A stretch of DNA of 63,387 nucleotides, filler included, from Chiloscyllium plagiosum (Eukaryota), in NCBI RefSeq assembly GCF_004010195.1. It is 3 parts of 3 records of this genome, joined end to end, with 100 filler letters (N's around TTAATTAATTAA, not from the genome) between each part and the next. Parts side by side here need not be neighbours in the genome. Positions count along the whole stretch, not along the records: positions 1 to 27,837 come from NC_057717.1; 2 more parts are not named here. The stretch is one strand, 5' to 3'. How positions within the stretch are numbered: the stretch's first letter is position 1; every line of letters begins with the position of its first letter. The notes below the pieces were generated by a model. The model saw only the letters and a program-made list of their open reading frames with translations. It searched no databases and was not told the DNA's origin. The translations under genes and the position numbers were made by a program. This document shows positions 5,003 to 63,387 of this stretch, piece by piece.

Positions 5003-5124
5003 TTACTTCTTTTTATTTTGTTTGATACAGTAAATGATTGTGATAAATAACAATTCTCCAGTTATGATTACAACAGAGGAGAGGCCAATGATCTTTGCTG
5101 CAAGCCTTCTGGCTGTTGTTTGAT
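5003..5124 (-). CDS. VCAM/ICAM-like gene, last exon: transmembrane helix and very short basic tail
   Basis: Acceptor ctttaattcag|AT; phase 1; (Y)QTTARRLAAKIIGLSSVVIITGELLFITIIYCIKQNKKK*. Confidence 0.75.
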
Positions 5125-5269
5125 CTGAATTAAAGAAAAGTAAAGAATGATTAAATTAATATCAAAAGTGTTCATTACACAATAACATACAAATATGGTT
5201 TAAAGTCCGCTTTAAAGTTATTTATCCTTTATATCCTCTCTCCTAATTAAAAGTGCGATTCCCCATTAA

Positions 5270-5535
5270 TGTCGAGGTGCCAGTGTCGACGAGGTTGGAC
5301 AAAACTAAAAATCACACATCACCAGGTCATTGTCCAACAGGTTTATTTGGAGGTACAAGCTTTCAGAGCGTTGCATCTTCGTCAGGTAGCTTGTGAAGTA
5401 GGATCGTCGGACACAGAATTTATAATAAAAGATACGACTGATGCAATGTATTGAACAAACCTAGATTGCTGTTAAGTCTTTAATGACTTAGAATGGTGAT
5501 GCAGGTTTTCATTGATTAATATAGAAATCCCAGGT
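5270..5535 (-). mobile_element. PLE family B 3' end with partly degenerate hammerhead motif (about 5357-5391)
   Basis: Homologous to 20712-20870; minus strand CUGACGA..GAAAGCUU. Confidence 0.6.
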
Positions 5536-6558
5536 GGGACTTGCCTCCCTGCGCTAGCCTCCAGTCTGTGACCTGCTGAGCTTTTCCAGCAATTTCTGTT
5601 TTTGTTTTTGATTTACAGCATTGGCAGCTCCTTCGGTTTTTATTTAGCTAACAGACAGGTAGAGCAGAATACACATCAGAATGTCCTGAAAAGCTATATC
5701 CTACATCTGCCAGTTGCTAGACAAGCATTTGCATCCTCAAGGACTGGGAAACATGTCATTTCAATTTCTTTGAAGAAGACAGCGATCCTCAATTTCTCAA
5801 GGAATTGATCATTGAAGGAAAACACTTAGGATCTCTATGAAATTTCACACTCATTCAGTTGTAAATTTATCTGGGAGGTGACTCATGGCTTCATCACTAA
5901 AGCCCATTAATATATTAGCTTTCCCTGGATGCTGGGAATCAGATGCTCAGGACATTCTGCATGGTTGCCATTGCTAGAAATCCATAGGGGCTGCATACAA
6001 ACAGTTGTAATCACGTAGCAATCAGAGCACACTATCAGCCACCAGCAATGTTCTGGAAAGGTTCCACACTGTAAGTGTGTGGATCATCTATGATGACACC
6101 AGCCAAGTAATGCAGATCTATTCACAAGATCCAGGGAGCTGTCACAACTCCTACATTCTGGAACCCTCAAAGGTGCCTGCATTGTTCAGTGCCCCTGACT
6201 TGCAAAGAATGAGCTGATTTGATTTAAATCTTTGCTGAAAATCTTGTTTACTAGTTGTTTATTAAAGAAATGTGCTTGCTGGATATTTTGATTCTAAACC
6301 TAATGTAGATAAAGCGTGTCATTGACTATATCTGTAACTGGATAAAGCATTTAAAGTTATGTTGTGTCCAGTGGTGAGGTGGGACCAGAGAATAACAGTA
6401 CAGTCTTGTTGAAAAGGTATGGAATCTTTGGTTATGTATGAGGAGACCCATTCAGTTTGGTTAGGACTAAGAGGAGAATTGGTATGAGAAATTCATTGGT
6501 CTGCATTTGGAAATAAAAAAACCCACTCATCTCTTGTCAGCAAAATTATTCCACTTAC

Positions 6559-6865
6559 ACAGGACATGGAGGGTTCCAACCTGTTGTTTAATAATAGGGC
6601 TTGTCATTGACTGATCTTGAAGTTTCAGTTCAGCTTCACAGATATACTGCTGTCCATCCAGCTTAGCTTGAGCTTCTACTGTATGAGAGATAATGAGCCC
6701 AGTACTGCTTGATCCATTCACTAATATGTCATTTCCTTTCTTCAGTCTGAGTTCAAGATCCCCTGAGACTTTTAACACAAGGCATGTAATATTAACCAAC
6801 AACATTCCGTGGGAGAATAAGGAAGAATAAAAATACATGGACAACAGGGAAAATGGAAATCGTGT
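6559..6865 (-). CDS. VCAM/ICAM-like Ig-domain exon, apparently frameshifted near its 5' end
   Basis: VNITCLV...LRLKKGN...DGQQYICEAEL...TLHVL then T|gtaagt donor. The best acceptor (cacag at 6866) gives a 307-nt exon, not a multiple of 3. Confidence 0.7.
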
Positions 6866-7492
6866 CTGTGTGGAATCGAATTCAACTGATTATCAAATTA
6901 AATAGACACAAGGATATCCACAGTGCCAAGAAGTTAGGGTGACTGCAGGAAGGGATTCAATTACCTCCTTAGGTGTAAACTCACTTGCTCAGTCACAATG
7001 CGCACAGGTCATTCACAACTTCCATATGTGAGAACTGATCCCGCAGGAGACCAATTGACAGAGTCAACAGTGAATTTACAAATGAGAGCAGGAGATCGAA
7101 ACTGCTGTTATTGCAGTTGTTCATCCCAACCAGCAATGAACCCTGTTTGCATGCGTGTTTCAAGTGGAGTTCCATTGTTTTCTGATGTAGATCCGTGATG
7201 TAGACATAGTTGCAGGAGCCAAGATTCAGAAGTTTGCTGATGATGCAACAATTGGTCGTGCAGTTGACTGTGACGACGAATGTCAGAGATTGCAAGGAAG
7301 TATCAATCTGGTGGAAAGGAAAATGGCGAATGGAATTGAATCCAGACCAAGCAGTGTTAACGAAAATAGGGAGAAGAAATAATAGCAGTGAGTATTCTGT
7401 GTGGTGCAGACAGACAAAGAGATCTTGGCGTGGACATTCATGATGACTGAAGATCAATGGACAGGGGAAATCAGTTGGATGGACGTGCGTAC

Positions 7493-8350
7493 TGTCGATG
7501 CTGGAGATCAGAGTCAAGATTAGAGTGGTGCTGAAGAAGCACAGCAGGTCATGCAGCACACATGTAGCAGAAATAAAGACGTTTTGGCAAAAGGCTTTCA
7601 TCAGGAATAAGGCTGGGAGTCTCGAGGTTGGAGAAGTAAATGGGAGGGGTGGGGCTTGGGAGAATTTAGCTGAGAGTGCAATAGGAGGATGGAGGTGGGG
7701 ATAAGAGTGTTCGTTCGGAGAAGAGGGTGGAGCGGATCGGTATGAAGGAAGATAGACAGGTGGGGCAGGTCAGTAGTACAGTGCCAAGCTGGAAGGTTGG
7801 AGCGAGTGTAAGGTGTGTGGCGGGGTGGGGAATAAGGAAACTGGTGAAATCCACATTGATGCCATGGGGTTGAAGTGTCATGAGGCAGAAGATGAGACGT
7901 TCTTCCTCCAGGCGTTGGGTGGTGAGGAAGTGGCTGTGGAGGAGTCTGAAAACCTGCATGTCCTCCGAGAAGTGGCGGGGAGGAGTTGAAGTGTTCGGTC
8001 ACGGGCGTTGGGATTGATTGTTGCCAGTCTCCTGGAGATGGTCTCTGAAGCGCTCTGTGAGAAGACGGCCGGTGGCCCCACTGTAGAGGAGACTGCATCG
8101 GGAGCAACGGATGCAATAAATGACGTGTGTGGAAGTGCAGGTGAAACTTTGATGGATGTGAAAGGCTTCTTTGGGGCATTGGGCAGAGGTGGAGTGTGTG
8201 TGGACGCAGGTTTTTCAATTCCTGTAGTGGCAGAGAAGGTGCCAGGAGGGGAGGGTGGATCATTGGAGGGCGGGGACTTGACGAGGTAGTCGTGGAGAGA
8301 CCGGTCTTTGCGGAAAATGGATAGGGGTGGGAGGGAAAAAAATATCCCTG
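7493..8350 (-). mobile_element. PLE 3' part with GIY-YIG endonuclease remnant
   Basis: Minus strand FTCTSTHVIYCIRCSRCSLLYSGATGRLLTERFRDHL...QPHGINVDFTSF, then purine/pyrimidine tract, degenerate hammerhead and tail. Confidence 0.85.
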
Positions 8351-8530
8351 GAGGTCTGTGTTACTGATATTTTTAACAAACCCACTGACAACCACAGATA
8401 TGTGGATTCCATCTCCTCCCACCCCACCTCCTGCACAAATGCTTTCCTGTGTTCCTAACTCCTCTGCCTCCGCTGCATCTGCTCCCAGAGGACCAGTTCC
8501 ACCACAGAACACACCAGAAGGCCTCCTTCA
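8351..8530 (+). mobile_element. PLE RT C-terminal fragment, inverted relative to the adjacent endonuclease part
   Basis: TDIFNKPTDNHRYVDSISSHP...LCLRCICS on the + strand. Confidence 0.7.
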
Positions 8531-8673
8531 TTTAAGATCGGAAATTCCCCTCCCATGTGGTGTTGGCAGTGGGACGAGATTGGGTTGGGATATCTGGTCG
8601 GCATGGACGAGTTGGACCGAAGGGTCTGTTTCCATGCTGTACATCTCTATGACTCTATAACCAGAATTCTTAC

Positions 8674-8967
8674 CATACACCTCAATAAAAGCACTATTAT
8701 TCTTTGAGGGAATTGATGGATATTTCTCAAAATCGGCCATACAGATGATTTCCATCAGACCAGATTCCTGTGGTGTCAATGCTGCTGTTATTCGGACAGT
8801 GTTGGAATTTGGCCTTGTGGTATCTGAGTTCAGTTCCACACCATCCTGAAACCATCTTACTCTCATCTTCTCAGCAGGATAGACATTTGAGACCTCACAT
8901 GTTAATGTGACCTCTTGCTTCACTTCTTTGGGTCTTTTGTCCAGGATTCTTGGCTGATCCATGAAAG
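8674..8967 (-). CDS. VCAM/ICAM-like Ig-domain exon (intact, phase 1-1)
   Basis: ttacag|CT...TAT G|gtaaga; 294 nt; VTLTCEVSNVYPAEKMRVRWFQDG...IICMADF. Confidence 0.9.
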
Positions 8968-9048
8968 CTGTAATACAGACAAGAAACTCACTTCATTTTA
9001 ATTTGTTGCAGTGTGTTTCAGTTTTGAATGGATAGAGTGGAAAACTGA

Positions 9049-9162
9049 TGAAGGGCTTTTGCCCAAAATGTTGATTCTAATGTTCCTCAGATACTGCCTG
9101 ACCTGCTGTGCTTTTTCTCTCTCGACTATAATCTCCAGCATCTACAGTCCTCACTTTCATCT
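9049..9162 (+). mobile_element. Short PLE 3'-end insertion with target-site duplication
   Basis: Flanked by AGAGTG(G)AAAACTGA on both sides; begins at the hammerhead core. Confidence 0.65.
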
Positions 9163-9389
9163 AGAGTGAAAACTGACATCATCCCAGAAATTTATCACGT
9201 TCACTCATAGTCAGAAAGCTGGAGACATCTGCAGAAGTTCACTTCTTTTATTTTTAAATTAATTCTTGCTACTTTTCAGGTATTTCAACTATTAAGTCTG
9301 TTTCATGTGCACCAATCAGTCTGAGTAGCATAATAATGTACCCCTGATTAACCTTCACTGTGATCTTCACTTGCATCTGTCTATAACAT

Positions 9390-10145
9390 GACTCGAAATA
9401 TGTGGTGCTGGAAAAGTACAGGAGGTCAGGCAGCATCTGAGGAGCAGCAGGTCAGGCAGCATCAAAGGAGCAGGAGAATCGACGTTTCGGGCATAAGCCC
9501 TTCTTCAGGAACCTAAAGAAGGGCTTCTGCCCGAAACGTCAATTCTCCTGCTCCTTTGATGCTGCCTGATCTGCTGCGCTTTTCCAGCAACACATTTTTA
9601 AGCTCTGACCTCCAGAGTGGCACGGTGGCACAGTGGTTAGCACTGCTGCCTGACAGCGCCAGAGACCCGGGTTCAATTCCCGCCTCAGGCGACTGACTGT
9701 GTGGAGTTTGCACGTTCTCCCCGTGTCTGCGTGGGTTTCCTCCGGGTGCTCCGGTTTCCTCCCACAGTCCAAAGATGTGCAGGGTCAGGTGAATTGGCCA
9801 TACTAAATTGCCCGTAGTGTTAGGTAGGGGCAAATGTAGGGGTATGGGGTGGGTTTCGCTTCGGCGGGTCGGTGTGGACTTGTTGGGCTGAAGGGCCTGT
9901 TTCCACACTGTAATCTAATCTAATCTAATCTAATCTGCAGTCCTCACTTTCTCCTTGCATCTGAGGAGCAGGCTAGTTGACGTTTCAGGGCATGAGCTCT
10001 TCCTGATAAAGCCCTTTATCAGGAAAGGCTTATGCCTGAAATGTCAGCTCTACTGCTACTCGGATGCTGCCTTGCCTACTGTGTTTTTCCAGTGCCACAC
10101 CTTTTGACTCTGACTCTCCAGCGTCTGCAGTTCTCAGTGTCTCTC
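9390..10145. mobile_element. Nested PLE fold-back elements (younger 9448-9956 inside an older one)
   Basis: 15-bp TSD GCATCTGAGGAGCAG at 9433-9447 and 9957-9971; opposed hammerhead motifs at about 9477-9511(-) and 9512-9545(+). Confidence 0.7.
9617..9935 (+). mobile_element. HE1-type tRNA-derived SINE
   Basis: A box TGGCACAGTGG, B box GGTTCAATTCC, V-SINE-like core, HER1 tail and (TAATC)n end. Confidence 0.9.
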
Positions 10146-11051
10146 TATCTATGACATCCTGGCTAAGGCTGGGATTTCAGTGTTCATAACCCAGGTGTAG
10201 ATTTTTGTAGTTTTCTTTGCCCTCTCTTTATAATGAGGTTTACTGAACTATTTATCACCCCCCCCCGCCCCCCCCCTCCTCATTACTGAGTGATGTTTAA
10301 GGCAGCGTGGTGAAATTCCTTCAGAAATTCCTGTCACTGTCAGGAATCTGCTGGCTGCCATGTGGCAAAGCAAGAGGTGACTGCCTCAGCCACCCAGTGT
10401 TCCTGAAAGTGGAAGGAGCGCCCATCAGTACACTTTAACCAATGGAATGTCTGGCAAGTCAGAACATACTCCAACTTGAGCTCTCCACCTTGAAGAAGGA
10501 AAATCAAGAGATGTGGGAACGGGTAAGGACATGGGGCTACAGTCAAAGATTAGTTATTGAACAGCAGAGTAGGCTCAAGGAGCTAAATGGCATATTCCCA
10601 CACCTGTTCCTTATGTTTATCTGCCTCGCAAAGATTTTATTGACTTTTTTGGACTAGATTTTGCACACTCTCTAGCAGGCTTAAAGATTTGTAGAACATT
10701 TAGAATTACACCATGAACAGGTCATAGAGTCATCCAACACGGTAACAGACCAGGTTTCCTAAACTGAATTACCCCCATTCACCTGTGTTTGGCCCATATC
10801 CCTCGAAGCCATTTCTGTGCAAATGTTGTATTTGTACCCATCTCTACTATGGGTGAGAAAATTGCATGTTTGCACCATTATTCAGGACAAACAATTCTTA
10901 TCCATCATATTTTGTAATGGGGACAAAACAAGAACTCATGAGAAGCCCATCTCTAGATTGCTTTCCATTGTTTATTCTGAACAAACTATAGGTATTTAAT
11001 CAATGGTATTTTCTAAAGAAAGAGAGCATTTCTTGTGCAATTAGAACTTAC

Positions 11052-11366
11052 CATAAGTTTGCAGACTGACAGAAGAGTTTGTGATTGACTTTGTGGTCTG
11101 AGAGCCCAAGTCCACTTCAGCCAAGCAGGTGTATTCCTGTCCATCATCTGATCGACTTGCAATGAAATTGAAGACATTTCTCAACCTTTTATCTTCATCC
11201 ACAGAACCTGGTTCGCCTGTGGAATTTCTCTGAAGAATCTCGCTACCTCTCAGCCATGTGAGTATGAGTTTATTGTTTGGATAGACTCTTGGGCGAATGC
11301 ACTCCAGACTATATGTTCTGTTAATCTCCAGTACTTCAGGGAGTAATGTAATGCTTACCTCTCGAT
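11052..11366 (-). CDS. VCAM/ICAM/MAdCAM-like Ig-domain exon (domain-2-like, intact, phase 1-1)
   Basis: ttcacag|AT...TAT G|gtaagt; 315 nt; YSLECIRPRVYPNNKLILTWLRG...DDGQEYTCLAEVDL. Confidence 0.9.
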
Positions 11367-11582
11367 CTGTGAAAGGAGAATCACAGTTAACAGGTTTCAC
11401 TGAAATGGTACGTTTAATGTTTCAGGCGTCCACTTGGTGTGGATAAGGAATGGAAGTGGACTGACCAGTATGCAGTTTCCCAAAAGGTTGTCAACTTCTG
11501 CAGGTAGCATGAGGTGTGTATGGGTCCATAGCAATTCCCAACCCACTTCTGCAGGTAGCCAATTAGGCTCATTCATACTTTT

Positions 11583-11672: not shown

Positions 11673-13200
11673 CTCATTCATACTTTTGTTAAAGGGAATA
11701 AAGGAGGCCATGTGGGAGCTTTCAGTTAACCTCCAGTTTCCCAACATAACACAGTCTGATGAACTGCTTGGAAGTATGCAACCAGAGGCAGACTGGGCGA
11801 CCAACGCTCAAGGCAGCTTGTGGCCTTCCATGCCTGCCTTAGTGCAGGTCCAATTGAAGACTGCCATGTTGAAAGATTCTCCCTGCCAACCCGCAACAGA
11901 GTTGGCTGAGCTGCTTTCACTTGTTTTTCATCATTTTTGTTTTTCAAAATTGAGGAGGCTGCAGAAGTGAGGAACTGGTGTTGTAGTGGTACTGTCACTG
12001 AACTGGCAATAATCTGGGGACATGAATTAAATCCCACCCTGGCAGCTGGTGCAATTAAGTTCAATTGAAAGCTCACCTAATGATGATGATTATGAAGAAA
12101 CCATTATTGATTGTCATAAAAACCCATCTAATTCGCTACATTGATTAGGGCACTGAAGGTAGCAAGGGTACATAGTGCAATCTGAGTGCACAAATTCAGT
12201 GACCATTACCAGAAGTATCTCAGTAACACCACTATTGATTGAGCTAGCAGAGTCCGAAAGGACATAACTGCTAGATTGGTTCTGCAGTAGATGAGGTGGG
12301 AACCAAGGAGAGACAAAATCATACTTGATTTTATTTCCACCAATTTACCTGCCTCAAATGTAGCAATGAGAGTATTGGTGGAAGTGATTGACACACAGAT
12401 CTTATGGAGATTAACTCCAACCTTCTCACTGTCACAACTCCGTGACGTAGTATACTGGAGATCAGGTCTCACTATTCCCAGAATCATCACAAGTTACAGC
12501 TATTGTACTGAAGTCCACATAACAAAGCTCACATATTCCTAAAAATCTCATGATTTTCTATTCAGCTTTAGAAATGTGGAATTCAATCAGATTCTTCACT
12601 TATGCGGTTCTTGGTAATATTTATCTTTGCCCTATGAAGTATCCCAAGTAAGTTACCTTTGCTTTTGTGAATTCACTTTTGGCCAGATTTATTACTCAGC
12701 CAGCTGACTACAATTGCTTAAGTAGGTCTTCTAAGTACCTTACATGGTCTTCCCATGTATATAACAACATTGTCTAATAAAACTGCAATATCAGATACTT
12801 TAGCAATGGCTTGATGCAAAAGTCTTTGGAATGTAACTGGGGCCATTTAAAACCCAGAGAAGTCACTTTACTTACTGTCTTAACATGTTTCTATTGACCA
12901 CTGATCTTTGCTTTCAGAGGTTCATCCTGTTTAAGCGCACAAAAACTTTGTATCCTGCTTGCAACTATCTAATATTCTGTTGACAACATGCTTATCTGCC
13001 TATTCTTTTCATAATCTCCTGGGAGGTGTTTAAATGCTGCTGCACAATTTTATGTGCTCCCATAAGTCTGTAGAAACTGAACATACAATCCAATAGTGAC
13101 CAATTTATGTTCTTTTGTCTTAAGAACTCTTCCATAATCAATTTTAATGGCTTGTCTCATGCTCATTGATTAGTTCAGTTGGATCAAACCCAAATGATTC

Positions 13201-13470
13201 AACAAGTCCACACCGACCTTCCGAAGAGCAACCCACCCAGACCCATTCCCATACATTTACCCCTGACTAATGCACCTAACACTACGGGCAATTTAATATG
13301 GCCAATACACCTGCACATCTTTGGACTGTGGGAGGAAACCGGAGCACCCAGGGGAAATCCACGCAGACACAGGGAAAATGTGCAATCTCCAAACAGACAT
13401 TGCCCGAGGTGGGAATTGAACCAGGGTCCCTGGCATTGTGAGGCAGCAGTGCTAACCACTGAGCCACCCC
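13201..13470 (-). mobile_element. HE1-type SINE (3'-truncated)
   Basis: Reverse complement matches the 9617 SINE; tail missing. Confidence 0.85.
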
Positions 13471-14692
13471 GATGAGGAAATCCTTCTGTATATCCATGGC
13501 CAAGAGGAAGAATATTCGAGAATCCTCTGCTTCCAGCTGTCACATCGATAATGACAATATGGATGAGACAACGTGAGTTGACGAATGTTCTGGTGCTCCA
13601 CTTAAAACTGAAGAGCCAAGGAAGATGAACAATCAGCCACCAAGGTTCCTGAAAAATCAAGAATGTAGATGCACACGAAGTGTCATTGAAACTACCACAA
13701 ACAATCAAGAGAAGGAGCTGTCAGCTAATGTAGAAACATGTAGAATTTCAAAAGTTCAGAAAGGTTATCTTATCACAGAGAGCAGTGATTCTGACGAACC
13801 AGTTTTTCTTGATGGCCAGAATGTTGAACGGAAACGGAGTTATAAGCATGCAGTGGCAGCTGTGTGTAATTACAATGAAGAATTAGAAACAGATGACTTT
13901 CCACCAAGAAAGAAGACCCCTTCACCAGACCTTACAGCCAGCCATGTGGTTCGACTAAAGCACAACAGCTTCCTCCATGCAGTTCAAAAGAACCAATTGA
14001 TGATGACCCCAGTGTCTGTTGGCTGCACAGTAGTTAAGTCCTTCATTAAATGCACACTCCACTGAAAGTTGATCCCAAGGAACAAGAGACAGCTCGTCTG
14101 GCAAATCTAAAGAAGAAACGAGAACAAGAGGAAGAAAGAATGCAAAAGATGGAGGAAGAGAAGAAACGCAAAATGGAAGAGTTTAAAAGAAACGGGAAAT
14201 GCAAATAAAGCGTGTTTTGGAAACCCGTTCCAGAGTTCAACAACAAGAAGAAGAAAAGATCAAAAAAATTGAGCAGAAGTTTGCTCAAATTAATGAGAAG
14301 AATGCAAATTAATGAGAAGAATTGTGGGCGGCACGGTGGCACAGTGGTTAGCACTGCTGCCTCACAGCGCCAGAGACCCGGGTTCAATTCCCACCTCAGG
14401 CGACTGACTGTGTGGAGTTTGCACATTCTCCCCGTGTCTGCGTGGGTTTCCTCCGGGTGCTCCGGTTTCCTCCCACAGTCCAAAGATGTGCAGGTCAGGT
14501 GAATTGGCCATGCTAAATTGCCTGTAGTGTTAGGTAAGGGGTAAATGTAGGGGTATGGGTGGGTTTCGCTTCAGCGGGTCGGTGTGGACTTGTTGGGCCG
14601 AAGGGCCTGTTTCCACACTGTAATCTAATCTAAATCTAAATCTAAATCAAAGATGCGTAAGGAAAGATTTGCTGAAGAGAAAGCAAAAAAAG
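13471..14692 (+). pseudogene. INCENP: Processed pseudogene fragment of inner centromere protein, split by a SINE
   Basis: SFLHAVQKNQLMMTP..VVKSFIK/TPLKVDPKEQETARLANLKKK...IEQKFAQINEK [SINE] KMRKERFAEEKAKK matches the INCENP central and coiled-coil region as I recall it; no introns; frameshifts and stops. Confidence 0.88.
14326..14648 (+). mobile_element. HE1-type SINE inserted in the INCENP retrocopy
   Basis: Full length, near-identical to the 9617 copy, (TAAATC)n tail. Confidence 0.9.
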
Positions 14693-15100
14693 AATATTGA
14701 ATTCAACATTTTTAGGGTTTGAGGCCACCTCGTTACCCCAAGACGTGCACACCAGGCCTTGTTATTACACAGGCTGCTACAACTTTATCAGCTACTAATA
14801 GCCCCAATTAGGAGGTATTCATTGCCCCCAGACTGACCTTTAGCCACTTCTGTCTTTCCAACTGTTTTTCTTTCTCTTTGGTCTTTATCTTCACTGATCA
14901 TTTCCTCCTCTCCGGCCCCACCCAATGTCCTGAGTAAATATCAGCTTTTTCCTAGCTTCCATCAGTTCTGAAGAAGGGTCCCTGGACCTGCATTGTTAAC
15001 TCTGATTTCTCTCCACAGATACTGCCAGACTTGCTGAATGTTTCGAGCAATTTCTGTTTTTATTTCTGATTTTCAGCTACCATGCTGCTTCTATTTTTTT
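14693..15100 (+). mobile_element. PLE family C 3' end
   Basis: Starts with NIEFNIFR (aligns with PLE endonuclease end NVDFTSF); degenerate hammerhead GTTCTGAAGAAGGGTC..GACC..GTTAAC at about 14965-15000; tail shared with 50419-50560. Confidence 0.65.
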
Positions 15101-15489
15101 GGTAGACTTCGGATATTTTATACCCAAATTACCAATCATTATCCTGGAAAATTTTAGTCACAATGTTGGAACCTTAGTCAGATTGTATTTCAATTGGTAG
15201 TCCATATCAAGAACAGTACTGAGTTAACTTTTCCACTACTACCTTAATTGTTATTGTCCAATCTATAATTGTAAGGACTGGTAAGTTCTGTTCCTCTCTC
15301 CAATTGGATTTCCATTCTAACCTTTCTTTTTGTACTCCATTGTTACTTCTGTTTTCTCTCCTGGTATTTGATAAAATCTTTGCCAAAACTTGTTTCTGCA
15401 CCCACACATCATTCCTCAGTGACTCCTCCGGCTCTAGGTCACCCAGCATGAATTCTGACTGAAGTTTCATCCTTTGCATTTTCACTCAG

Positions 15490-17150
15490 GATCATGATGT
15501 ACAAAACACCTCAGACAGTTGTTCTCATCACTGAGGACCACACTGAATGCTATGTGCCACCATTTGCACACTCTTGAGCTCTTTTTCAATCAGTGCTACC
15601 TCTTGCTGGCTCAGAGCTGTCCTGCACCTCAGTTTCAATGGACTTTCCAGCTCTTTCAGCATTCTAATAAGAATCTTTTTTTCTTTCAGGCATTGAGAAA
15701 TGCAAACTGGTACAACTCAGAGATACACATGCCCCTCTGGAATGCCACTCCCCTCCCTTCTCCTCTGACTCTATCCTTTTTCCTGATTCTACTACTTGTC
15801 AAATATTTAATATCCCTTCTGACCTTCCACTCTCTGATGGTGAACATTCCACACTGAGCAACTGTCTTAGTTGTATCTCTTTGTGCCCTCACCTTAATGA
15901 ATTTTGAATGCACATGTTTTGAACTCTTCTTCCGTCACCTCTGCCTCTGTGCCCAATTCTTTGGGTAGAGTCCTCTCTACACCCCATGGAATCTTCACCC
16001 GCCTCCAACACTCTCCCTTTACCTGGACTCTTCCTTGTTGCCTTTTTCCTGCTCTTGACCTGTTGAGAACTGCTGATGCAGCATTGGTTGTCTTAATTTC
16101 CCTACCTCACATTACACATTTGAACCAATCTCCTTCTGAACTGACTGCTGTCAGATCCACTTCTGACTTTCTCATCAAGCCTGCAAACAAGGATAGTGCT
16201 GTTATTGTGTGTCATAATGACCTCAACATTGCAGAGGCTTAGTGCCAGCTGTTGGACATCTTCTATCTTACCCTGGACTACGATCCCACCATTGAGCATC
16301 ACACCATTGTATCCACAACTTTAATTAACCTCATTTTATCTGGGAATCCCCCCCCCCAACAGCCTCTAAACCCATAGTCTCCCAATTGCCTACACTGAAC
16401 TCTCAACTGTTAATGTTGATCTCTCTCACTGCATCTTCCCTGCAGCTTTAATACTGTATTCTAACATCTGCTTGCAATATGATTTTGATCTCTAGCTATG
16501 GACTTTATTAGCCATTCTGTTCTGTTACCTGATGGACTTTGTATGGTATGAACTGCCCATAGACCATGCAAAACAACATTTTTCACTATATCTCGGTACA
16601 TGTGACAACAATAAATCCAATCAATTCAAATCAAAATCCTGCTTTTACCTTCTACCCACCTGAGCGGACCCATCGCTTCTGCCTGTTCCTGCCCTGCAGA
16701 ACTTATTTCTTCCTTCTTCAACTCTTTTTCTCCCCTTGACAGTCTCTCCCCCTTGCATCCATGATTCTTCTGATGCTTTACATCATTTTCCAGTATGTTG
16801 GCATCAATCTCCTCCTGTTCACCATGGACTTGCAATCCCTTTACATGTCCATCCCCCATAAGGGTGTTCTTAGACCCTCCACCTCTTCCTGGAAAGAAGA
16901 CCTGAACCGTCCCCATCCAACATCACACTGCTCCGCAACACACAAGCTCGTTCTCACTTTTAATAACTTCTCCTTTAATCCTCTCACTTCCTTTAGTCAA
17001 AGTTTGAGTACCCACATGGGCTCCAGTTATGCCTGTATCTTTGTGGGGTACATGGAACATTCCTTGATCCAATTTACTCGTGGTCCTCCAAATACTCTTC
17101 CTCTGGTATATTTTTGCCTTTTTTCTGGTGCAGTTTCCCTTAGGCATTCT
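15490..17150 (+). mobile_element. Degenerate PLE reverse transcriptase region
   Basis: IKPANKDSAVIV, LFTMDLQSLYMSIPH, LVLTFNNFSFN, HMGSSYACIFVGYME motifs. Confidence 0.85.
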
Positions 17151-17244
17151 TAATACAATAGTACTCCAGAACTCCTTCAGCCTCTGCTTCAGTGTGAACT
17201 GCCTACACTGACTCATGTAATTCTGAATCTGCTTTCTGTATTCA

Positions 17245-17492
17245 GGATTGAGATGAAGAATTTCTTCACTCAGAGAGTTATGAACCTGTGGAATTCTGTC
17301 CCATAGGAAGTTGTTAGGGCCAGTTCATTAGATACATTCAAGGGGGAGGTGGACATGGCCCTTGTTGCTAAAGGGATCGGGGGTATGGGGAGCAGGCGGG
17401 AATGGGATACTGAGATTCTATGATGGTATTGAATGGTAGTGCAGGCTCTGAGGGCCAAATGAGGTACTCCTGCATCTACTTTCTATATTTCT
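17245..17492 (+). mobile_element. CR1 LINE 3' end
   Basis: EMKNFFTQRVMNLWNS motif plus ...TACTCCTGCATCTACTTTCTAT tail. Confidence 0.8.
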
Positions 17493-20400
17493 GAGCTTCA
17501 CTTAATGATGATGAGTTAAATACCTCCTTTGGATTATCCTGTTTCATTATAAAGTTTCAGCTATTCTAACATCTGCTTGCAGTATGATTTTGATCTCTGG
17601 CTGTGGACTTTATTAGCCATTACTGTGGTCACCACTAATGATAGAATAATACTAGACTTTGTATTTGTAACTGATCCATCTCGTTCACCTCATTTGGACT
17701 TTGTGATTATGAATAAAATTATATCTTTCACTCCAGTCAAATGATTACCTAGGAGTAAGTACACTCCATCCAGAGGTAATTTCTTAACTGTTCCTACTAC
17801 CACTGGTCTGATAGCATGTCACATTCCAATTGCACTTTGTACCATTGAACTGGCACATACTTTGTACCTATCTTGTTTACTAATGCTAAATCTTACATTG
17901 CATTCTCTAGAAGAAAAACTAAATCCTTCTCCAGCAAAAGCAGCTGTTGTAAGAAGCAGAGTAGCATCTGTGTCCCTCAACAGAGTTGTGCGTTTTATGG
18001 CATGATTGGGAAAAAAAATAGTTCTTTGTTCTCTTGAAAAAAACCCTTTACATTCTCTGATCTCCCTATTAATCTGATTTGCATCTTTCAGTTTCCTGAT
18101 CGTAGTTAAAGTTGATCCGTTATATTTTTGTTTTGAGTTCCTATTACAGATTACACTCTTAGGAGCCTCAGCGCATCCTATACAACTCCCATAATTCTGA
18201 ATGAAGGTGTCCTACTTTATTACATTGGAAGCACTTCACTTTTCACCTACATCCTCAGCACCTTCCTTTCTGATCTGGAGAAGAGATTTTGGGGCATTCC
18301 TAGCTGTCCTTTTTTATACCCTGGCAATTTACCTTCCTTTCACTCTCCCATTCTCTATGCTTTTTAAGTTTATGTGGTTGAGGGAAACATGGTTTAGTTT
18401 TATAGATCAGCTCATAATTGTCAGCCATCCCTGTTTAGTAGTTGCAATTCTTTGGCCTTCAACAAGGGTTTTTAATTACAAAAGTTATTAATTTTTTTCT
18501 AAGAGAATGATCTCTCAGGGAACTTCATATGTGGTTTCAACTTCTAATGTTCATATATTTATATCAAAATTGCTTTGCTTAACCTTTTGAAATCCTTGGC
18601 AGGTTTGCCCAAGCTGTTTACTTAAATTTCAAAACTTTTCCTGTATGCTTCCTGAACTGTCACATGCTCCCAGTATAGTTCTTGTATACTGCCTTAATCC
18701 CTAGAAATCTCCTCTGACAATGATACATAAATATCCTATGAGCAATGTTCAGTTTTACTTTGGTTGTTTCATTTGTCTAGTTTTTCCAATGACATGAAGA
18801 ATGCTTCCACATTCTTTTCCTCAAATTTTGGTATGACCTGTACAACCTTAAACGTTGCCTCAATGGATTTTAGATTATGACTAGGATTTTCCCTATCAGA
18901 ATAAGCAGCATTCTCTTTTTTACAAACAGCATCATTTTAAGCTCATAGTTGTCATCTTTCTCTCCTGCCTTCCTTTGCCTTTGTAGTTTTAATTCTAATA
19001 TTCTAATGATCATTTCAAACTCCAACTTCTGCATTTTTTTTTCACATGCTGAAACTTTTTTTATTTGTAACTCAATATAAACTGATTCTAACATCTCACT
19101 ATTTGGAGTACTTGGTATCTCCTGTATCTCTATTAAGTGCAAATGCTGTGCTAATCCTTCAATTAGCTGTGCCTTTTTAGATCTGACAGGTAATGTCACT
19201 TCTAATTTATCTTCCAATTTCATTAAAAGAGATCATAAACATCAAGGTGAGTTAATCAGGAACAGTTATAGAAAGCCTTTACAACTTCCAATGCCATCTT
19301 ATCTTTGTAGTACAAGCCTTGGTGTTTATCTTTTAAGCCTTTGTCACTCATGCTAACTCCACATCCAATCTTAAATTGTCTTTGTTCCAAAACCCTGGAT
19401 CAGCCCTCAAACGTTGCCATGACTCACTGCGGCACTTTACTGGAAATCAAGCCCCACTTTTCCTAGAGTCTTCACAAAGTGAAAGGATTTAAACTGGCTA
19501 TGAAAAGTCCCCAGTGTAGATGACTGATGTTGACAGGTTAAAAGAAAACAATCATCAAAAGATAGTAAATAAACAGCTATTTATTGGAAACAGATTGTTA
19601 TTATTCCATGGCAGAAAAGAAACACTAATTGCTAACCTATAACTTTCTGAACTTCTGAACCTAATGAAAAAATTGCCATTTACATACAAACAGACATATT
19701 AAGAGACAAAACACAAATAATGCTAGTGGGAAAGGAACAGCACAGTTCTAGAATCAGATATAAATAAACAAGCATATCAGACAACCTGTTAACTCTGAGA
19801 TTTGACTCTAAGTGAGCTGGATCATTGTCAAGGACTTTCCATTTATAAATAAAGGGTGATTTGGTGATGGGATATTGGCCTCAATGGACTTATTTCACTG
19901 GAGAAATTCAGCAGCTTTGGTGGCATCTGTAGAGTTAAAACAAAAGTAACGTTTGGTATCCAGTAACCCTTCATCAGAACAGGTTGTAGCCACTCGACCA
20001 GAACCAATCAAAAAGTTGTTAGGTAGCTGATAATTCTGTACACAAGCAACTAGTCCAGGGTAAAAACCAAATACGTCTGTCACTAGGGAAACCTTCCCTT
20101 GGACTGTCACCCACAGAGCCAAGGATGCTAATATCTTCCCCAAGACTTTAATAAGGCCACCTTGTAGATGCAACACACAATGCATTCCAGTAACTTGCTT
20201 TTTCAAAAAAAAACTGCAACAACCTTTTTCACAGTCCCTCAGTTTAAAGCAAAGGATTTTCCTATTTTTGAATCTAGTCCAAAAAAAATTGCTTAACAAC
20301 ACTGAGGAAACCCTCCATCATGTTATGTGGTACTATCACTGTGCTGAATGCAATAGATTTTGAATAGAAACTGCAAATTGGGCATTCATGAGGTGTTGTG

Positions 20401-23829: not shown

Positions 23830-25750
23830 GTGACAAATCAGGGAGGGGGAGAGTTACCTGGGAACTGTGTTTCAGGAGGCTGTCATGTCCATTTGACTAA
23901 CTAGCTTGATTTTGTTCAGTGGTTTGGGATAGGGGGAATGTACTATAAGAAAGTGAGGACTGCAGATGATGAATATCAGAATCGAGAGTGTGTGGTGCTG
24001 GAAAAGCACAGGTTATGCAGCATCCAAGGAGCTGGAAAGTCAATGTTTTGGACAAAAACACTTCATCAGGAATGAGGCTGGGAGCCTCCGGGATGGAGAG
24101 ATAAATGGGAGGGGGGTGGGGCTGGGGAGAAGGTAGCTGAGAGTGCAATAGGTAGATGGAAGTGGAGGTGATAAAATCCCTACAGGGAATCCCGAAGGAA
24201 CTATAACAGCATACAGGTAGATGAATTGACAATGTAAATCAAGGTAATTAAATATGATCTCATAGCTGCTATGGATATATGGTTACAAGGAGATCAAAAC
24301 GAGAAACTTAACATTCAGGGATATTTGACCTTTCAGAAGATGGAAGAAGGGAAAAGGTGGTGGAATAGTTGTGTTAATAAGAAACATTATGACAATAATT
24401 GTATGAGATGATCTAGGCTCAGATGATGTAGATTCCATTTGGGTGGATATAAAAAACAACATGGGTAAGAGTAGTATATAGACCGCAAACAGTTTGCACT
24501 CTTTAGGAAAGACTTTAAATCAGCAACTCATAGGAGCATGTAAAAAGAATTGAGCAATAGTTATGGGTTACTTTAATCTTCATGTTAATTAGGTTACTTC
24601 AATTGGAAAAGGTAGCAATGACAACAAATTGATAGAGTGCATTAGGTATAGTTTGATAGAGCAATACCTTATGGAACAGAGAGCAGGCTATCTTGGACCA
24701 TGTAATGGGTAGTGAGGAGGTTTAACAAATGGCATCTGAGTAAAAGGTCACCCAGGAAGTAGTGATCATAATATGATAGATTTTAATATTCATTCCAACA
24801 GTGAGAAACCTGGGTCAGAAAAAAAACTGTTTAACTTAAATAAAGGGAATTATAATGAAATGAAGTTGGTGTTAGCTAAAATGAACTAGGCAGATAGATT
24901 ACCAGGAATGACAGTAAGCAAGCAGTGGTAGACATTTAAGGAGGAAATTCATGACTCTCAGCATGGATGTATCCCAGGAGAGATGAAAGATTCTAATAGA
25001 GATAAACCAATCATGGCTAACCAAGTAAGTTAAAGAGAGCAGTAAGTTGAAATAAAAAGCAGACAAGGAGGCCAAAGACTGGAATAAATTCAGAATCCAT
25101 CAAAGGTGGACTAAAAAGTTAATGAAGTCAGAGATAACAAATTATATGGGAAAATTAGTGAGAATATGAAAACTGACAATAAGAGAGTCTTTAAATATAC
25201 AACAATGAAGAGAGAGGTCAATGTGTACATAGTTTCAGATACACTAATGAGGCTAAAAGCAGATTAATACCCTGACCCTGATGTCTTGCATCCTAGGATC
25301 CTAAAAGAAGTAACTACAGCGATAGTAGACGCATTTAGTTGTAATTTTCAAAAACTCCTTGGATTCTGGAGAAGTAGCAGAGATAGAAAACTGCCATTGT
25401 GACATCCCTCTTCAAAAAGGGGGGGAGACAAAAAGCAGGTAACCATAGGCTAATTAACCTAACATCTATTGTTGGAAAAAAATTGGAATCAATTATTAAG
25501 GAAGTATTTGCAGAACAATTGGAAAATCATAACCCAATCAAAGTCAGCACGGCTCCATGAAAAAGAAATTATGTCTGATTAATTTATTAAAGTTTTTTTG
25601 AGCAAGTCTCAATCAGAGTGGGTAGAAGAGAACTAGTGACTGTGTCGTATTAGGAATTCCAGAAGGTGTTCGTCATGGTACCTCACAAAAGGTTAAGTCG
25701 TAAAATAAGAAACAATGGTGTCGGAACTAGTAGACTGGTATGGATAGAGA
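23830..25750 (+). mobile_element. Degenerate CR1 LINE (endonuclease to RT), interrupted by a PLE 3' end at about 23950-24172(-)
   Basis: GKGGGIV, SDHNMI, PDVLHPRILKE, NHRLINLTSIVGK, FQKVF remnants. Confidence 0.8.
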
Positions 25751-25754
25751 CAAT

Positions 25755-25980
25755 GAGGTCTGCAGATGCTGGAGCTCAGAGTTGAGAGTGTGTGGCTGGT
25801 AAAGCATAGCAGGTCAGGCAACATCCAAGGAGCAGGAAAATTGACATTCCAGGCTGGAGCCCTTCATCAGGAATGAAGCTGGGAGCCTCGAGGATGGAGA
25901 GATAAATGGGAGAGTGGTGGGGATGGGGACAAGGGGGCTGAGAGTGCAATATGTGGTTGGAGGTGGGGGTAAGGGTAATA
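25755..25980 (-). mobile_element. PLE family A 3' end leading into the minisatellite
   Basis: Reverse-complement tail and degenerate hammerhead; colinear with 7493-7770 and 23950-24172. Confidence 0.75.
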
Positions 25981-27837
25981 GGTCGGACAGGAGGGTGGAC
26001 CGGATAGGTGGGAAGGAAGATAGACAGGTGGGGATAGGTGGGAAGGAAGTTAGGCAGGTGGGGACANNNNNNNNNNNNNNNNNNNNNNNNNNNNNNNNNN
26101 NNNNNNNNNNNNNNNNNNNNNNNNNNNNNNNNNNNNNNNNNNNNNNNNNNNNNNNNNNNNNNNNNNNNNNNNNNNNNNNNNNNNNNNNNNNNNNNNNNNN
26201 NNNNNNNNNNNNNNNNNNNNNNNNNNNNNNNNNNNNNNNNNNNNNNNNNNNNNNNNNNNNNNNNNNNNNNNNNNNNNNNNNNNNNNNNNNNNNNNNNNNN
26301 NNNNNNNNNNNNNNNNNNNNNNNNNNNNNNNNNNNNNNNNNNNNNNNNNNNNNNNNNNNNNNNNNNNNNNNNNNNNNNNNNNNNNNNNNNNNNNNNNNNN
26401 NNNNNNNNNNNNNNNNNNNNNNNNNNNNNNNNNNNNNNNNNNNNNNNNNNNNNNNNNNNNNNNNNNNNNNNNNNNNNNNNNNNNNNNNNNNNNNNNNNNN
26501 NNNNNNNNNNNNNNNNNNNNNNNNNNNNNNNNNNNNNNNNNNNNNNNNNNNNNNNNNNNNNNNNNNNNNNNNNNNNNNNNNNNNNNNNNNNNNNNNNNNN
26601 NNNNNNNNNNNNNNNNNNNNNNNNNNNNNNNNNNNNNNNNNNNNNNNNNNNNNNNNNNNNNNNNNNNNNNNNNNNNNNNNNNNNNNNGAAAGATAGACGG
26701 GTGGGGACAGGTGGGAAGGAAGATAGACGGTTGGGGAACAGGTGGGAAGGAAGATAGACGGGTGGTGTTAGGTGGGAATGTAAATAGACGGGTGGCGACA
26801 GGTGGGAAAGACTATAGACGGGTGGGGATAGGTGGGAATGTAAATAGACGGTTGGGGACAGGTGGGAAGGAAGATAGACGGGCGGGAACAGGTGGGAAGG
26901 AAGATAGATGGGTGGTGAGAAGTGGAAAGGGAAGATAGACGGGTGGGATCGGTGGGAAAGAAGATAGACGGGTGGGGATAAGTGGGAAGGAAGATAGACA
27001 GGTGGGGATAGGTGGGAAAGAAGATAGACAGGTGGGAAGGAAGATCAACGCTTGGTCACAGGTGGGAAGGAAGTAGACGGGTGGGATAGGTGGGAAAGAA
27101 GATAGACGGGTGGGGACAGGTGGGAACGAAGATAGATGGGTGGGGATAGGTGAGAAGGAAGATAGACTGGTGGGGATAGTTGGGAAGGAAGTTAGACGGC
27201 TGGGGACAGGTGGGAAAGATGATAGACGGCTGGCAGCTGGGAAAGATAGACGGGTGGGGACAGGTGGGAAGGAAGATAGACGGTTGGGGAACAGGTGGGA
27301 AGGAAGATAGACGGGTGGTGTTAGGTGGGAATGTAAATAGACGGGTGGCGACAGGTGGGAAAGACTATAGACGGGTGGGGATAGGTGGGAATGTAAATAG
27401 ACGGTTGGGGACAGGTGGGAAGGAAGATAGACGGGCGGGAACAGGTGGGAAGGAAGATAGATGGGTGGTGAGAAGTGGAAAGGAAGATAGACAGGTGGGG
27501 ACAGGTGGGAAGGAAGATAGACGGGTGGGGATAAGTGGGAAGGAAGAGAGACAGGTGGGGATAGGTGGGAAAGAAGATAGACGGGTGGGGACAGGTGGGA
27601 AGGAAGTGGGAAGGAAGATAGACGGGTGGGAACAGGTGGGAAGGAAGTTGATGGGTGGGGACAGGTGGGAAGAAAGATAGACGGGTGGGGACAGGTGGAA
27701 AGGAAATAGACGGGTGGGAATAGGTAGGAAGTAAGATAGATGGGTTGGGACAGGGGGAAAGGAGGATAGACGGGTGGGGACAGGTGGGAAGGAAGATAGA
27801 CAGGTTGGGACAGGTGGAAAGGAAGATAGATGGGTGG
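25980..27837. repeat. G-rich minisatellite, about 30-bp unit AGGTGGGAAGGAAGATAGACGGGTGGGGAC (includes N gap 26067-26687)
   Basis: Dozens of tandem units; the block at 26688 recurs at 27241. Confidence 0.95.
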
Positions 27838-27937
27838 NNNNNNNNNNNNNNNNNNNNNNNNNNNNNNNNNNNNNNNNNNNNTTAATTAATTAANNNNNNN
27901 NNNNNNNNNNNNNNNNNNNNNNNNNNNNNNNNNNNNN
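27838..27937. other. Artificial 100-bp contig spacer N44-TTAATTAATTAA-N44
   Basis: 12-mer with stops in all six frames, centred in Ns; identical to 51164-51263. Confidence 0.95.
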
Positions 27938-37875: not shown

Positions 37876-38684
37876 AGAGGAATAACTTTGTGATTGTCCA
37901 CTGACACGAGGAAGGGTCTGGTTTCTAAGATGCGTGGGATGTAATATCTGTGCGTGGGGTAGGGTGTGCCTTATACCTGCAAGTGTCTGGGTACTTTGAG
38001 AGACCTCCTATTTGGAGAGAATGCTCCAAATTCCTTCTGGTGACGATTAAAAACTTCCTCAATTATGGTCCTAGTTTTGACTTTTTTTCAGGCGAGTAGA
38101 TAGAGTCATATCAATATTGCCTAACCTGTGGAATTTACTTTTCAAGAGTTTTCCCACAGCTACACTTGTCTGGACATCTCTGGATATTTACAATGATATC
38201 TTGTCCGAAGCAAGATTATGCAATTCCAATCCAGAGGTATAGCCCAGTCCAGAGGTCTGTCTTAATTTCAGAAATGCTCTATATCAGCATGGTACTTTAG
38301 ATCTATAGAATGTTCCCTAGTTTGTGAGAAGTCCTCTGCCTCTGGGAAATGCCCTGCCTCTGAGAGCTGAACTCCTTTCTTGGGAAGTGGTGCAAGTCAT
38401 GATTGTGGGTCTTCTAACTTGAGCAGTGAATACAGTCCCAGATTTTCTGAATTCTATTGTGCCTTCTTATCCATTTCTTGCCAGGTGCTGGGTAGCTGGT
38501 CCAGCTTTCTTAAATTGCTAAATTGGAGGGAGACTGAGGCTGTTGTTGAGATTTTTTAACTTTTGAACATCTGATACCAATCCACTGGTTTTTAATGTTG
38601 TATTTCATCTCTAATTGTCTGGGCGCAAATATCTGGAATGCGATGATTCCCAGTTCTCAAATGTTTCTCTCTTCTGGTTTGCAG

Positions 38685-39619
38685 TTAATTTGATATCGAT
38701 TGTGATCCTGGCCCGGGAAAACTGTGGTCTCTCTAACTGCACCATTCGCTATCTGGTAGCTATGGCAGTAGCAGATTTCTCTGTCATTATCACTGAGGTT
38801 ATATTAAGACAATTCAATTGGTATTATTTCCCAGTATGTTTCCTGGACATCACCCCTGTGTGCCGCATCCGCTATATCCTCATGTATGCAGCAAGAGACT
38901 GTTCAGTTTGGTTCACGGTCACTTTCACCTTCGACACATTTGTTGCTATTTGTTCTCTCAGGCTGAAGAGAAAATGTTGCACTGAAAAAACTGCAACCAT
39001 AATTCTTGCAACAAGCTGTATTCTGTTCTGTTTAAAAAACATCCCTTACTACTTTGTATATGAGCCTGGGAAAATCATTAACAATGTCCCCTGGTTATGT
39101 AATGTGAAATCAAGCTATTATGCAGAGGCCGCATGGGTGGCATTTGACTCGTTTGCTGCGGTTTTAAGCCCATTGCTCCCGTTTGCTTTAATACTTTTGT
39201 TCAACTTTCTAACTGTTCGACACATTTTGACAGTCAGTCAGGTCTACAAGGCCCTAAGGGGTCAAACGAAAAGAGGGAATCCCAGTGACCCAGAAATGGA
39301 AAACAGAAGGAAGTCTGTGATTCTACTTTTTGCTATATCAGGAAGCTTCATACTTTTGTGGCTGGTGTATGTCTTACATACCTTTGATATTGCAGACCGA
39401 TTAGATCGTGATTCATTTTACACCTTCGGGCAAATTGGATTCATGCTGTCTAATTTAAACACCTGCATTAATACATTTATCTATGTGACAACTCAGTCCA
39501 AATTCAGAGGTCATTTCAAAAGCATGATGAAATATCCGCTTACATTGACCATTCAATTAATCAATGCATCAAACAGAAGATGGCAAACCAAACACCCAGC
39601 AGATACAAGCAAGCTGTGA
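38685..39619 (+). CDS. GPR139-like rhodopsin-class GPCR, exon 2 (end of TM1 to TM7, open frame)
   Basis: ttgcag|TT acceptor in phase with exon 1; YLVAMAVAD, CSVWFTVTFTFDTFVAIC, DPEMENRRKS, NTCINTFIY, QSKFR. Confidence 0.9.
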
Positions 39620-61780: not shown

Positions 61781-63105
61781 CCAGCACATAAACACTGAGC
61801 TATCGCTGAAATGTTACGAACTGTTTATTCATGCAGTGAAACAGACAAGAGCATTTGCAGCTGGATTTCAGCATCCTACATCAATGATGCAACCAGCAAA
61901 CACTCCCTGGTGAAATGAAAGTCTGAAATTTACACAATGCTTCTGCCAGAAGGCTTTAAAAATGTATTTTTACTAAATAAGTAATTTGAAAATACAGTAA
62001 TTGTTTTATTTAGAAAAATGCAGTGGTCATTTTCTCTCAGTATGGTCAGAGATGTAAGGTGTACAAAGCTGTGAGGGGCATAGACAAGGCGGGTAGGGAG
62101 AAACCTTTCCCCTGAGTAAATGGGTCACAACCTGCAAACACTGTTTTAAAGGGGAAAAGCAAGAGTTTTAAAGGATATTTTCTCTCAGTATCTGGAAGTC
62201 ACTGCTCAAGAAAGTGTGTTAGAAGCAGCAACCATCAGACATTTTAGTAGTATGTGGATGTGCACTTGAAAGTCTATAGCATTTAAAATTCTGGGCCAAC
62301 TGCTGGCAAATGGAAGAAAAGATGGGCTGAAGGGCCTTTTTCTGCACTGTAAAAAAGTGTATGACTAAAAAGGATTGGAGATCAATGACTCATTAATCTG
62401 AATTTTCAGCGTTGGTTAGAATAGGAATATTGTCAAGACATCCAAAGAGCCCTATTGACCAGCACCTTAAGATTGGACTACACTTCTTATCCATTGTACC
62501 TATCATTAACTGTACTTCACATCAACTACTTGTCTAAAATGGGTTGCTGTGAAGCCCAATGGTTCTTACAACTTGACCATCCAAGATTCAGGGAACTCAC
62601 TTCTTTCTATAGTTCTACCTCTGATGCTTTCATGAATTTCCGTAGATTTTGCAGGAGATTTATTTGGGCACTGTTGCCTACTTAGTAGCTCAATCGGCAT
62701 CAGAAAACTGAGATACTGTACCAACTGGAAAAACAAGCAAAGGTATGGGAACATTGGTTCAAATGAATGCTCACAAGTTCCACTTAGGTGGTTTTGCCAC
62801 AATAAAATGTGGCCAAGTAAAGGATTGCACCACTGCATTGTAACACCCTTCCAACCCTCCTCCACATCACAAAAAAATCCAACTCTGACTTTACAATAGC
62901 TTAATTCATTTAGCAGAATCCTGGCCAAGTGTTGCTGAGGAGCTGACCATCTGGAGCAGATGTGGTCATGTTGGGGAAGGGGGGGGGAGAATGAGTAGAA
63001 ACAATTTTCCTTCAGGTACACCCTACTGGTCCCAATAACAACAAGCATTGCTTACATAAAATCCCAATTTGTGTTTCTGTGGTGGTAATACATTGGTATA
63101 ACACA

Positions 63106-63320
63106 GGAGAAAGTGAGGTCTGCAGATGCTGGAGATCAAAGTTGAAACTTTATTGCTGGAACAGCACAGCAGGTCAGGCAGCATCCAGGGAACAGGAGAT
63201 TCGACGTTTCGGGCACAGGCCCTTCTTCAGGAATGAAGAAGGGCCTGTGCCCGAAACGTTGAATCTCCTGTTCCCTGGATGCTGCCTGACCTGCTGTGCT
63301 GTTCCAGCAATAAAGTTTCA
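63106..63320. mobile_element. Young 215-bp PLE fold-back insertion with 16-bp TSD
   Basis: ACATTGGTATAACACA at 63090-63105 and 63321-63336; palindrome 63141-63322; intact hammerhead at 63199-63234(-). Confidence 0.85.
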
Positions 63321-63387
63321 ACATTGGTATAACACATTCAATCCAGTTTTCCATCCTTCAGAAGAATCGGAGGTGCTGCCTTCTCTA

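Follow-up and report, generated by a model that had tools for sequence, protein, structure and literature searches.

A dead fragment of a spliced INCENP transcript lies within a nested pile of mobile-element remnants in the genome of the bamboo shark Chiloscyllium plagiosum. It is joined to an inverted SINE on one side and to the 3′ part of a Penelope-like element (PLE) on the other, and we tentatively attribute this arrangement to a nested history in which the DNA was broken next to a PLE of greater age and each broken end primed cDNA synthesis, one on INCENP mRNA and the other on SINE RNA. The window, i.e. the whole stretch of DNA analysed, comprises 63,387 nucleotides (filler included) in three joined parts of assembly GCF_004010195.1, positions 1 to 27,837 being derived from NC_057717.1; all coordinates refer to it.

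Organization of the composite locus

From left to right the locus consists of the RT/integrase end of an LTR retrotransposon and an inverted SINE (both on the (-) strand), the INCENP piece, a first PLE piece, 186 bp of the LTR element, a second PLE piece and again the LTR element. The features are as follows.

5006..11367, (-): ICAM-like gene exons at 11050-11367, 8663-8968, 6554-6799 and 5006-5122 (protein matches)
12100..13199 (left limit approximate), (-): LTR element, downstream part, integrase end followed by RT and RNase H
13200..13471, (-): tRNA-type SINE, inverted relative to INCENP, joined to it head-to-head (self-BLAST and alignment, 7 window copies)
13472..14308, (+): INCENP retrocopy, main part, residues 309-587 of isoform X1 (frameshift-aware alignment)
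14309..14322, (+): repeat of the 14 nt at 14290-14303, on the 5′ flank of the inner SINE
14323..14649 (327 bp), (+): young SINE within the retrocopy, with a simple-repeat tail (self-BLAST)
14650..14692, (+): last INCENP piece, residues 588-601 (frameshift-aware alignment)
14693..15100, (+): PLE piece 1 of pseudo-LTR type, last 9 endonuclease codons, 3′ UTR, decayed hammerhead and T-run tail
15101..15285, (-): LTR element, 186-bp integrase-core piece between the PLE pieces (LTR-like composition, motifs by eye)
15286..17143 (start approximate), (+): putative PLE piece 2, running from near the beginning of the ORF into mid-RT and lacking the 3′ end (composition, DKG-like motif)
~16385-16640: later insert inside PLE piece 2
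17144..19232, (-): LTR element, upstream part, gag, protease and linker (frames read by eye)
~17240-17490: CR1-like piece interrupting the upstream LTR part

The inverted SINE, the young inner SINE and the PLE ORF resuming 186 bp past the PLE tail are absent from the sequence-only reading of this locus. No target-site duplication frames the PLE, the INCENP-PLE pair or the whole insert, the longest flanking repeats being of 4-5 nt and off the junctions; that the PLE has no duplication of its own agrees with what a single-event model requires.

The retrocopy stands apart from the parent locus, its neighbours being the ICAM-like exons and a 7TM gene. The exon at 11050-11367 encodes an Ig domain that shares 95% identity with a protein of Chiloscyllium and 93% with one of Hemiscyllium, and ICAM-like exons for residues 1-110 were not found in the window at >60% identity. 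The composite insert precedes, on the 5′ side, the exon that encodes residues 111-216, and so would probably be intronic and antisense to the gene. The 7TM gene is an intronless rhodopsin-family ORF of 334 codons at 38615-39616 (+) (Pfam PF00001, E 2e-14). Among the 24 public sequencing runs listed, 20 contain the stretch or part of it and 11 of them, from three studies of one organism, hold at least half of its words; a second organism carries 0.30 of the stretch in one run, and none of the 24 is an RNA run containing the stretch.

The INCENP retrocopy

The ORF at 13577-14062 matches 45 INCENP proteins among 202 candidates, the best being that of Hemiscyllium ocellatum (E 5e-65), and the frameshift-aware alignment assigns 13472-14692 to residues 309-601 of bamboo-shark INCENP isoform X1 with 254 of 293 codons identical, which confirms the identity given by the sequence-only reading. 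The copy carries four indels (~13616, 13654, 14051 and 14185) and one stop (13574). The same reading had described about 0.9 kb of intronless coding sequence; its length (~0.88 kb) and spliced state hold, the latter on indirect evidence, but the sequence is not continuous, being split by the 327-bp SINE. As that reading also had it, the copy ends at EEKAK and has neither 3′ UTR nor poly(A), so that the L1-type hallmarks, a poly(A) tail and a target-site duplication, are both absent.

Exon borders were deduced from protein isoforms of relatives rather than from parental DNA. Isoforms break at residues 330/331 (Rhincodon, Stegostoma, Scyliorhinus), 405-411, 511/512 (Xenopus) and 588/589 (Pristiophorus), which places the exon junctions in the retrocopy at ~13537, 13762/13777, 14079 and 14652/14653. 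All four are traversed without a gap, as would be expected if the copy were processed, and the template, judged by this indirect but sufficient evidence, was therefore a spliced mRNA. The 15-nt alternative segment encoding GYLIT is present at 13763-13777; in each of the three hemiscylliids these five residues distinguish isoforms X1 and X2. A Pristiophorus isoform lacks the segment beginning at residue 589, which marks the start of an exon. The 3′ break at 14692 falls in an A-run 12-14 codons further on, within that exon, and a splice junction at 14692 was therefore rejected. No remnant of the INCENP 3′ sequence was found elsewhere in the window.

Of the 34 sites at which the three hemiscylliids differ from both Rhincodon and Stegostoma, 29 show the hemiscylliid state in the copy, three the older state and two neither. 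In a tree of 132 residues it is sister to Hemiscyllium plus Chiloscyllium, with bootstrap values of 100 for the group and 72 for the outside placement. On this sequence comparison the retrocopy arose late on the stem lineage of hemiscylliids (bamboo and epaulette sharks). Sharks have two INCENP paralogues, which probably lie in tandem since a single gene model joins both in Chiloscyllium punctatum; the second one in Chiloscyllium is shortened and fast-evolving. Origin of the copy from the second paralogue was discarded, because the identity is 45% over one short stretch and the tree joins the copy to paralogue 1 with bootstrap 100.

SINEs at and inside the retrocopy

The inverted SINE has a nearly whole 5′ end (~8 nt missing), whereas its 3′ end has lost the tail together with ~40 nt. 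The head-to-head joint matches twin priming on a second RNA, because the SINE is inverted, 3′-clipped and nearly 5′-complete.

The inner SINE is 96% identical to the window copy at 9619-9933 and has the 4-nt repeat CAAA at both sides. At its 5′ side there is a 19-nt tandem duplication (14286-14322), and the SINE lies 3 nt before an inferred exon junction. It was also considered as the remnant of an intron, which the 96% likeness to a free SINE copy ruled out.

The Penelope-like element

As described in the sequence-only reading, INCENP is followed from 14693, on the same strand, by the natural 3′ end of a 5′-truncated PLE. The final codons of piece 1 resemble the end of the GIY-YIG copy at 7828-8160 (Pfam PF01541); the frame stops at 14720, after which come ~250 nt, a minimal hammerhead and a tail that stops at ~15100, like those of three other window copies. 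The hammerhead core at 14968 lies 275 nt past the junction, the corresponding distance in the other copy being 253 nt; stem II is retained and the GAAA core lost. Layout and motif are common to the PF01541-positive copy and other window copies, with only nine codons of the frame present in piece 1. Minimal hammerheads are known from PLE repeats, the available part of that source holding no shark data (PMC4209133). An Rfam scan found no hammerhead family and gave only chance hairpin matches (8).

Further PLE remnants were observed in the window. Head-to-head palindromic hammerhead stubs occur at 9440-9615, 9957-10143 and 63105-63326, where the Rfam scores correspond to chance microRNA hairpins; a hammerhead remnant at 19898-19990 lies close to where the LTR element presumably has its 5′ end; and a PLE 3′ region at 25745-27870 contains a long array of 30-nt tandem repeats and assembly gaps. 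PLE sequence accounts for ~7% of the window (1.8% on the (+) and 5.3% on the (-) strand).

The identity of piece 2 and its path through 10 frame changes, chosen by eye, follow what we take to be the general PLE layout, on which we also presume its link to piece 1. Composition scores are +4.3 and +3.7 for piece 2 against -21 for the 186-bp LTR piece, under a model in which 13 of 13 held-out LTR windows were negative and six of eight held-out PLE windows positive, a second-order model being less clear. A DKG-like motif was seen by eye near 16190, and the DKG motif has been named for PLE RT (PMC8557442). Searches with piece 2 in Pfam, PDB and the Atlas gave no confirming match (best Atlas score 0.79, a lead at most), the PLE motif had no matches in three collections, the search for a reference of the old PLE family returned one short endonuclease fragment, and no window copy covers 14693-14960 or piece 2. 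The two pieces (14693-17143) may form one unit, because a pseudo-LTR followed by an ORF is the usual order of partial PLE tandems (PMC8557442). In this case 186 bp of the target LTR element part the pseudo-LTR from the ORF start, and the split could reflect two primings of one RNA at two nicks. Within piece 2 a short LINE-like 3′ end includes a 64-bp stretch (16457-16520) copied with 94% identity from sequence 1.1 kb away (17562-17626), a local templated insertion.

The LTR retrotransposon

The RT frame at 12462-12788 matches Ty3 and foamy RT chains of solved structures (E 8e-6 to 2e-4). The integrase was recognised only by motifs seen by eye, and gave no match in Pfam, PDB or an HMMER scan of 1.84 billion proteins; 15 of 16 decayed frames had no relevant match in Pfam. 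No reference for the element was found in viral or metagenome contigs, and no LTR pair in a search of the window. The integrase read by eye lies upstream of the Ty3/Gypsy-type RT, as in Gmr1-like elements, in which integrase precedes RT (PMC8220671). The sequence-only reading had the composite interrupting a Gypsy integrase. The LTR-type RT at the left agrees with it, but the left neighbour of INCENP is the inverted SINE, and the interruption is not a clean one. Presumably ~45-50 integrase codons are missing at the insert, to judge from the motif spacing that we assume.

Relative ages of the parts

Private change in INCENP amounts to 28 of 536 non-synonymous sites (5.2%, 95% CI 3.5-7.5), or ~5.5% after simulation-based calibration. 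The inverted SINE has 16 of 273 letters private among the window copies (5.9%, 3.4-9.3) and is thus similar in age to the INCENP piece, while the inner SINE has seven of 304 (2.3%). PLE piece 1 has 11 of 109 (~10%, one-sided p 0.048; CI 4.5-16%, calculated for 10/109), an upper bound given only three other short copies and no subfamily assignment.

Other clocks point the same way. Comparable CpGs are kept in none of three cases in piece 1 and in 12 of 17 INCENP arginine CpG codons. Piece 2 has seven stops in 477 codons versus one in 293 for INCENP (one-sided p 0.13), with fewer routes to a stop per codon (0.27 vs 0.40), and its in-frame CGA:TGA ratio is 0:4 versus 4:1 (p 0.048). CpG o/e is 0.23 and 0.15 in this PLE; of the six further PLE copies, five lie at 0.35-0.47 and one at 0.20. 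Frameshift densities of piece 2 and INCENP (6.6 vs 4.6 per kb) do not differ clearly (p 0.37). Altogether four partly overlapping clocks, each with p ~0.05-0.15, put the PLE as older than INCENP; three of them, themselves overlapping, combine to p 0.059. The LTR RT is far more decayed, with five stops in 77 aligned codons versus one in 293 for INCENP (p 0.002). The order thus leans towards LTR element, PLE, INCENP together with the inverted SINE, and inner SINE, no single test being strong.

Origin of the composite

Among the accounts considered, the nested history of break-primed cDNA capture is our tentative preference, at somewhat below an even chance. An old Gmr1-like LTR retrotransposon would have inserted first and then received the PLE, of which a pseudo-LTR piece and, 186 bp away, an ORF piece were left. 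On the hemiscylliid stem a break or nick would have occurred at the 5′ side of the pseudo-LTR piece, which is the simplest account if the PLE is older. Both DNA ends would then have primed reverse transcription internally, the PLE-side end on an A-rich spot of the spliced INCENP mRNA and the opposite end on a SINE RNA; the two cDNAs would have been joined head-to-head, with the loss of ~140 bp of integrase and any further PLE 5′ sequence, and the young SINE would have inserted into the retrocopy afterwards. The candidate enzyme is a LINE RT acting in trans or a PLE enzyme nicking the older PLE copy, and according to the text available from PMC11167929 the PLE endonuclease may favour the ORF-pseudo-LTR junction of older copies. 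This history needs a chance break within a same-strand PLE, an event of a few per cent; the coincidence is modest and chance contact with a PLE not rare, because PLE sequence occupies ~7% of the window.

The sequence-only reading explained the junction by a PLE RT jumping onto a host mRNA. In such a single PLE-driven event the enzyme would prime at the tail, copy 407 nt of its own RNA and jump to the INCENP mRNA; the second strand may have been primed on SINE RNA, the template may have been a decayed copy moved in trans, and the ORF piece 186 bp away may have arisen when this RNA was primed once more, at another nick. Parts of that proposal stand: the copy is processed and truncated at both ends, it has the needed orientation, and the PLE keeps its natural 3′ end. 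The common strand, the PLE 3′ end, the lack of a separate duplication and the break inside an exon all suit one event, and 5.5% lies within the CI of piece 1 divergence (4.5-16%). The biochemistry is also favourable: for the PLE protein of the anole, cleavage and extension of both strands, an internal start at the tail and a predicted dimeric state are described (PMC11167929). Head-to-head 5′ structures are frequent among PLE insertions (PMC8557442). In rotifers PLE repeats mobilise host DNA in trans and PLE insertions can lack a target-site duplication, as the part of PMC3846280 at hand describes. However, equal ages are predicted unless the template had already decayed, and all age clocks lean to an older PLE, against the equal age of the two parts that the sequence-only reading would need. 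Moreover, three RNAs are required at once, the template jump of a PLE enzyme onto spliced mRNA was not found in the literature examined, and the original proposal omits the inverted SINE, which is the part age-matched to INCENP. We consider the single PLE-driven event somewhat unlikely. The full version with a single PLE complex, comprising two primings of a tandem RNA at nicks 186 bp apart, the INCENP jump and SINE priming of the second strand, seems to us unlikely. Overlap at the INCENP-PLE junction, the microhomology of interest to the sequence-only reading, is at most 1-2 nt and does not discriminate between the readings.

A longer ordinary INCENP retrocopy could instead have landed near the older PLE and been fused to it by a later deletion removing the last 330 codons, UTR and poly(A). 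The age order is consistent with this, the ages fitting a longer copy with later trimming equally well, and cross-border deletions are probable here, PLE piece 2 ending mid-RT against LTR sequence. Yet the clipped SINE demands a second deletion or twin priming, and the window holds no INCENP 3′ remnant that was detected; we regard such a deletion as rather improbable.

Capture by the LTR element, whose RT would have switched to co-packaged RNAs and back, replacing part of the integrase, has several hallmarks in its favour: both ends truncated, poly(A) and duplication absent, part of an ORF presumably replaced and several templates used (available text of PMC5131818). INCENP and the PLE are nevertheless antisense to the LTR element, its RT is far more decayed than INCENP and the window yielded no LTR pair, and we find this capture very improbable. 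LTR template switching copies mRNA in the sense of the element. Exon trapping, the SVA-like 5′ transduction route, would have joined INCENP exons by splicing to a PLE lying in an intron, with retroposition of the resulting chimeric transcript. It would account for the shared strand and for a spliced INCENP sequence preceding the PLE 3′ end but is hardly credible, the junction lying 12-14 codons inside an exon (Pristiophorus isoform) and not at a donor site.

Comparison with known systems

Break-primed capture has a close counterpart in class 2 templated sequence insertions, described in the available part of PMC5110952 as break repair with a cDNA patch. They share with the shark locus a spliced cDNA fragment, the absence of duplication and poly(A), a deletion at the site and little or no microhomology; unlike them, the present insert of ~1.15 kb seemingly combines two RNAs head-to-head, and is old, fixed and set inside an older pile of elements. 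A second RNA that is 3′-clipped, inverted and joined 5′ end to 5′ end is also found in twin-primed LINE chimeras, of which the accessible part of PMC4476161 reports inverted U5/U1/U2-L1 forms, U6 chimeras of L1, L2 and RTE, and tripartite ones ambiguous between one and two events. Those chimeras are flanked by duplications and consist of snRNAs and LINEs, whereas here a SINE, an mRNA and a PLE are accompanied by a deletion.

In Adineta vaga a host coding sequence likewise lies beside a pseudo-LTR of the same direction, and in one case described in the portion of PMC3846280 consulted the pseudo-LTR is at the 3′ side only. The mobilised rotifer gene, with introns retained, lies between pseudo-LTRs and has an 8-bp duplication around it (same source), unlike the shark copy, which is spliced and partial, with one pseudo-LTR and no duplication. 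LTR-mediated retrocopies, as far as the available text of PMC5131818 goes, resemble the locus in being doubly truncated and, presumably, in replacing part of an LTR ORF, but the INCENP copy runs against the sense of its LTR element and is far younger.

Meaning of the locus

On the best reading, break-primed capture, the locus is a dead retrocopy fragment that would represent an old example of cDNA synthesis on two RNAs at one break, and a fossil, with a date, of an INCENP splice form specific to hemiscylliids. All its ingredients have precedents. The jump of a PLE enzyme to spliced mRNA would be new, searches of an open-access library having yielded no report of one, and the locus does not establish it. 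If the PLE reading were true, the composite would document, in nature, the switch of a PLE RT to a spliced mRNA of its host, and would suggest how retrocopies can form where the main LINEs, e.g. CR1, are thought not to copy mRNAs (PMC5470649). If a single PLE complex made the whole composite, PLEs would supply sharks, whose stringent LINEs yield few retrocopies, with spliced copies of this kind and with multi-RNA chimeras.
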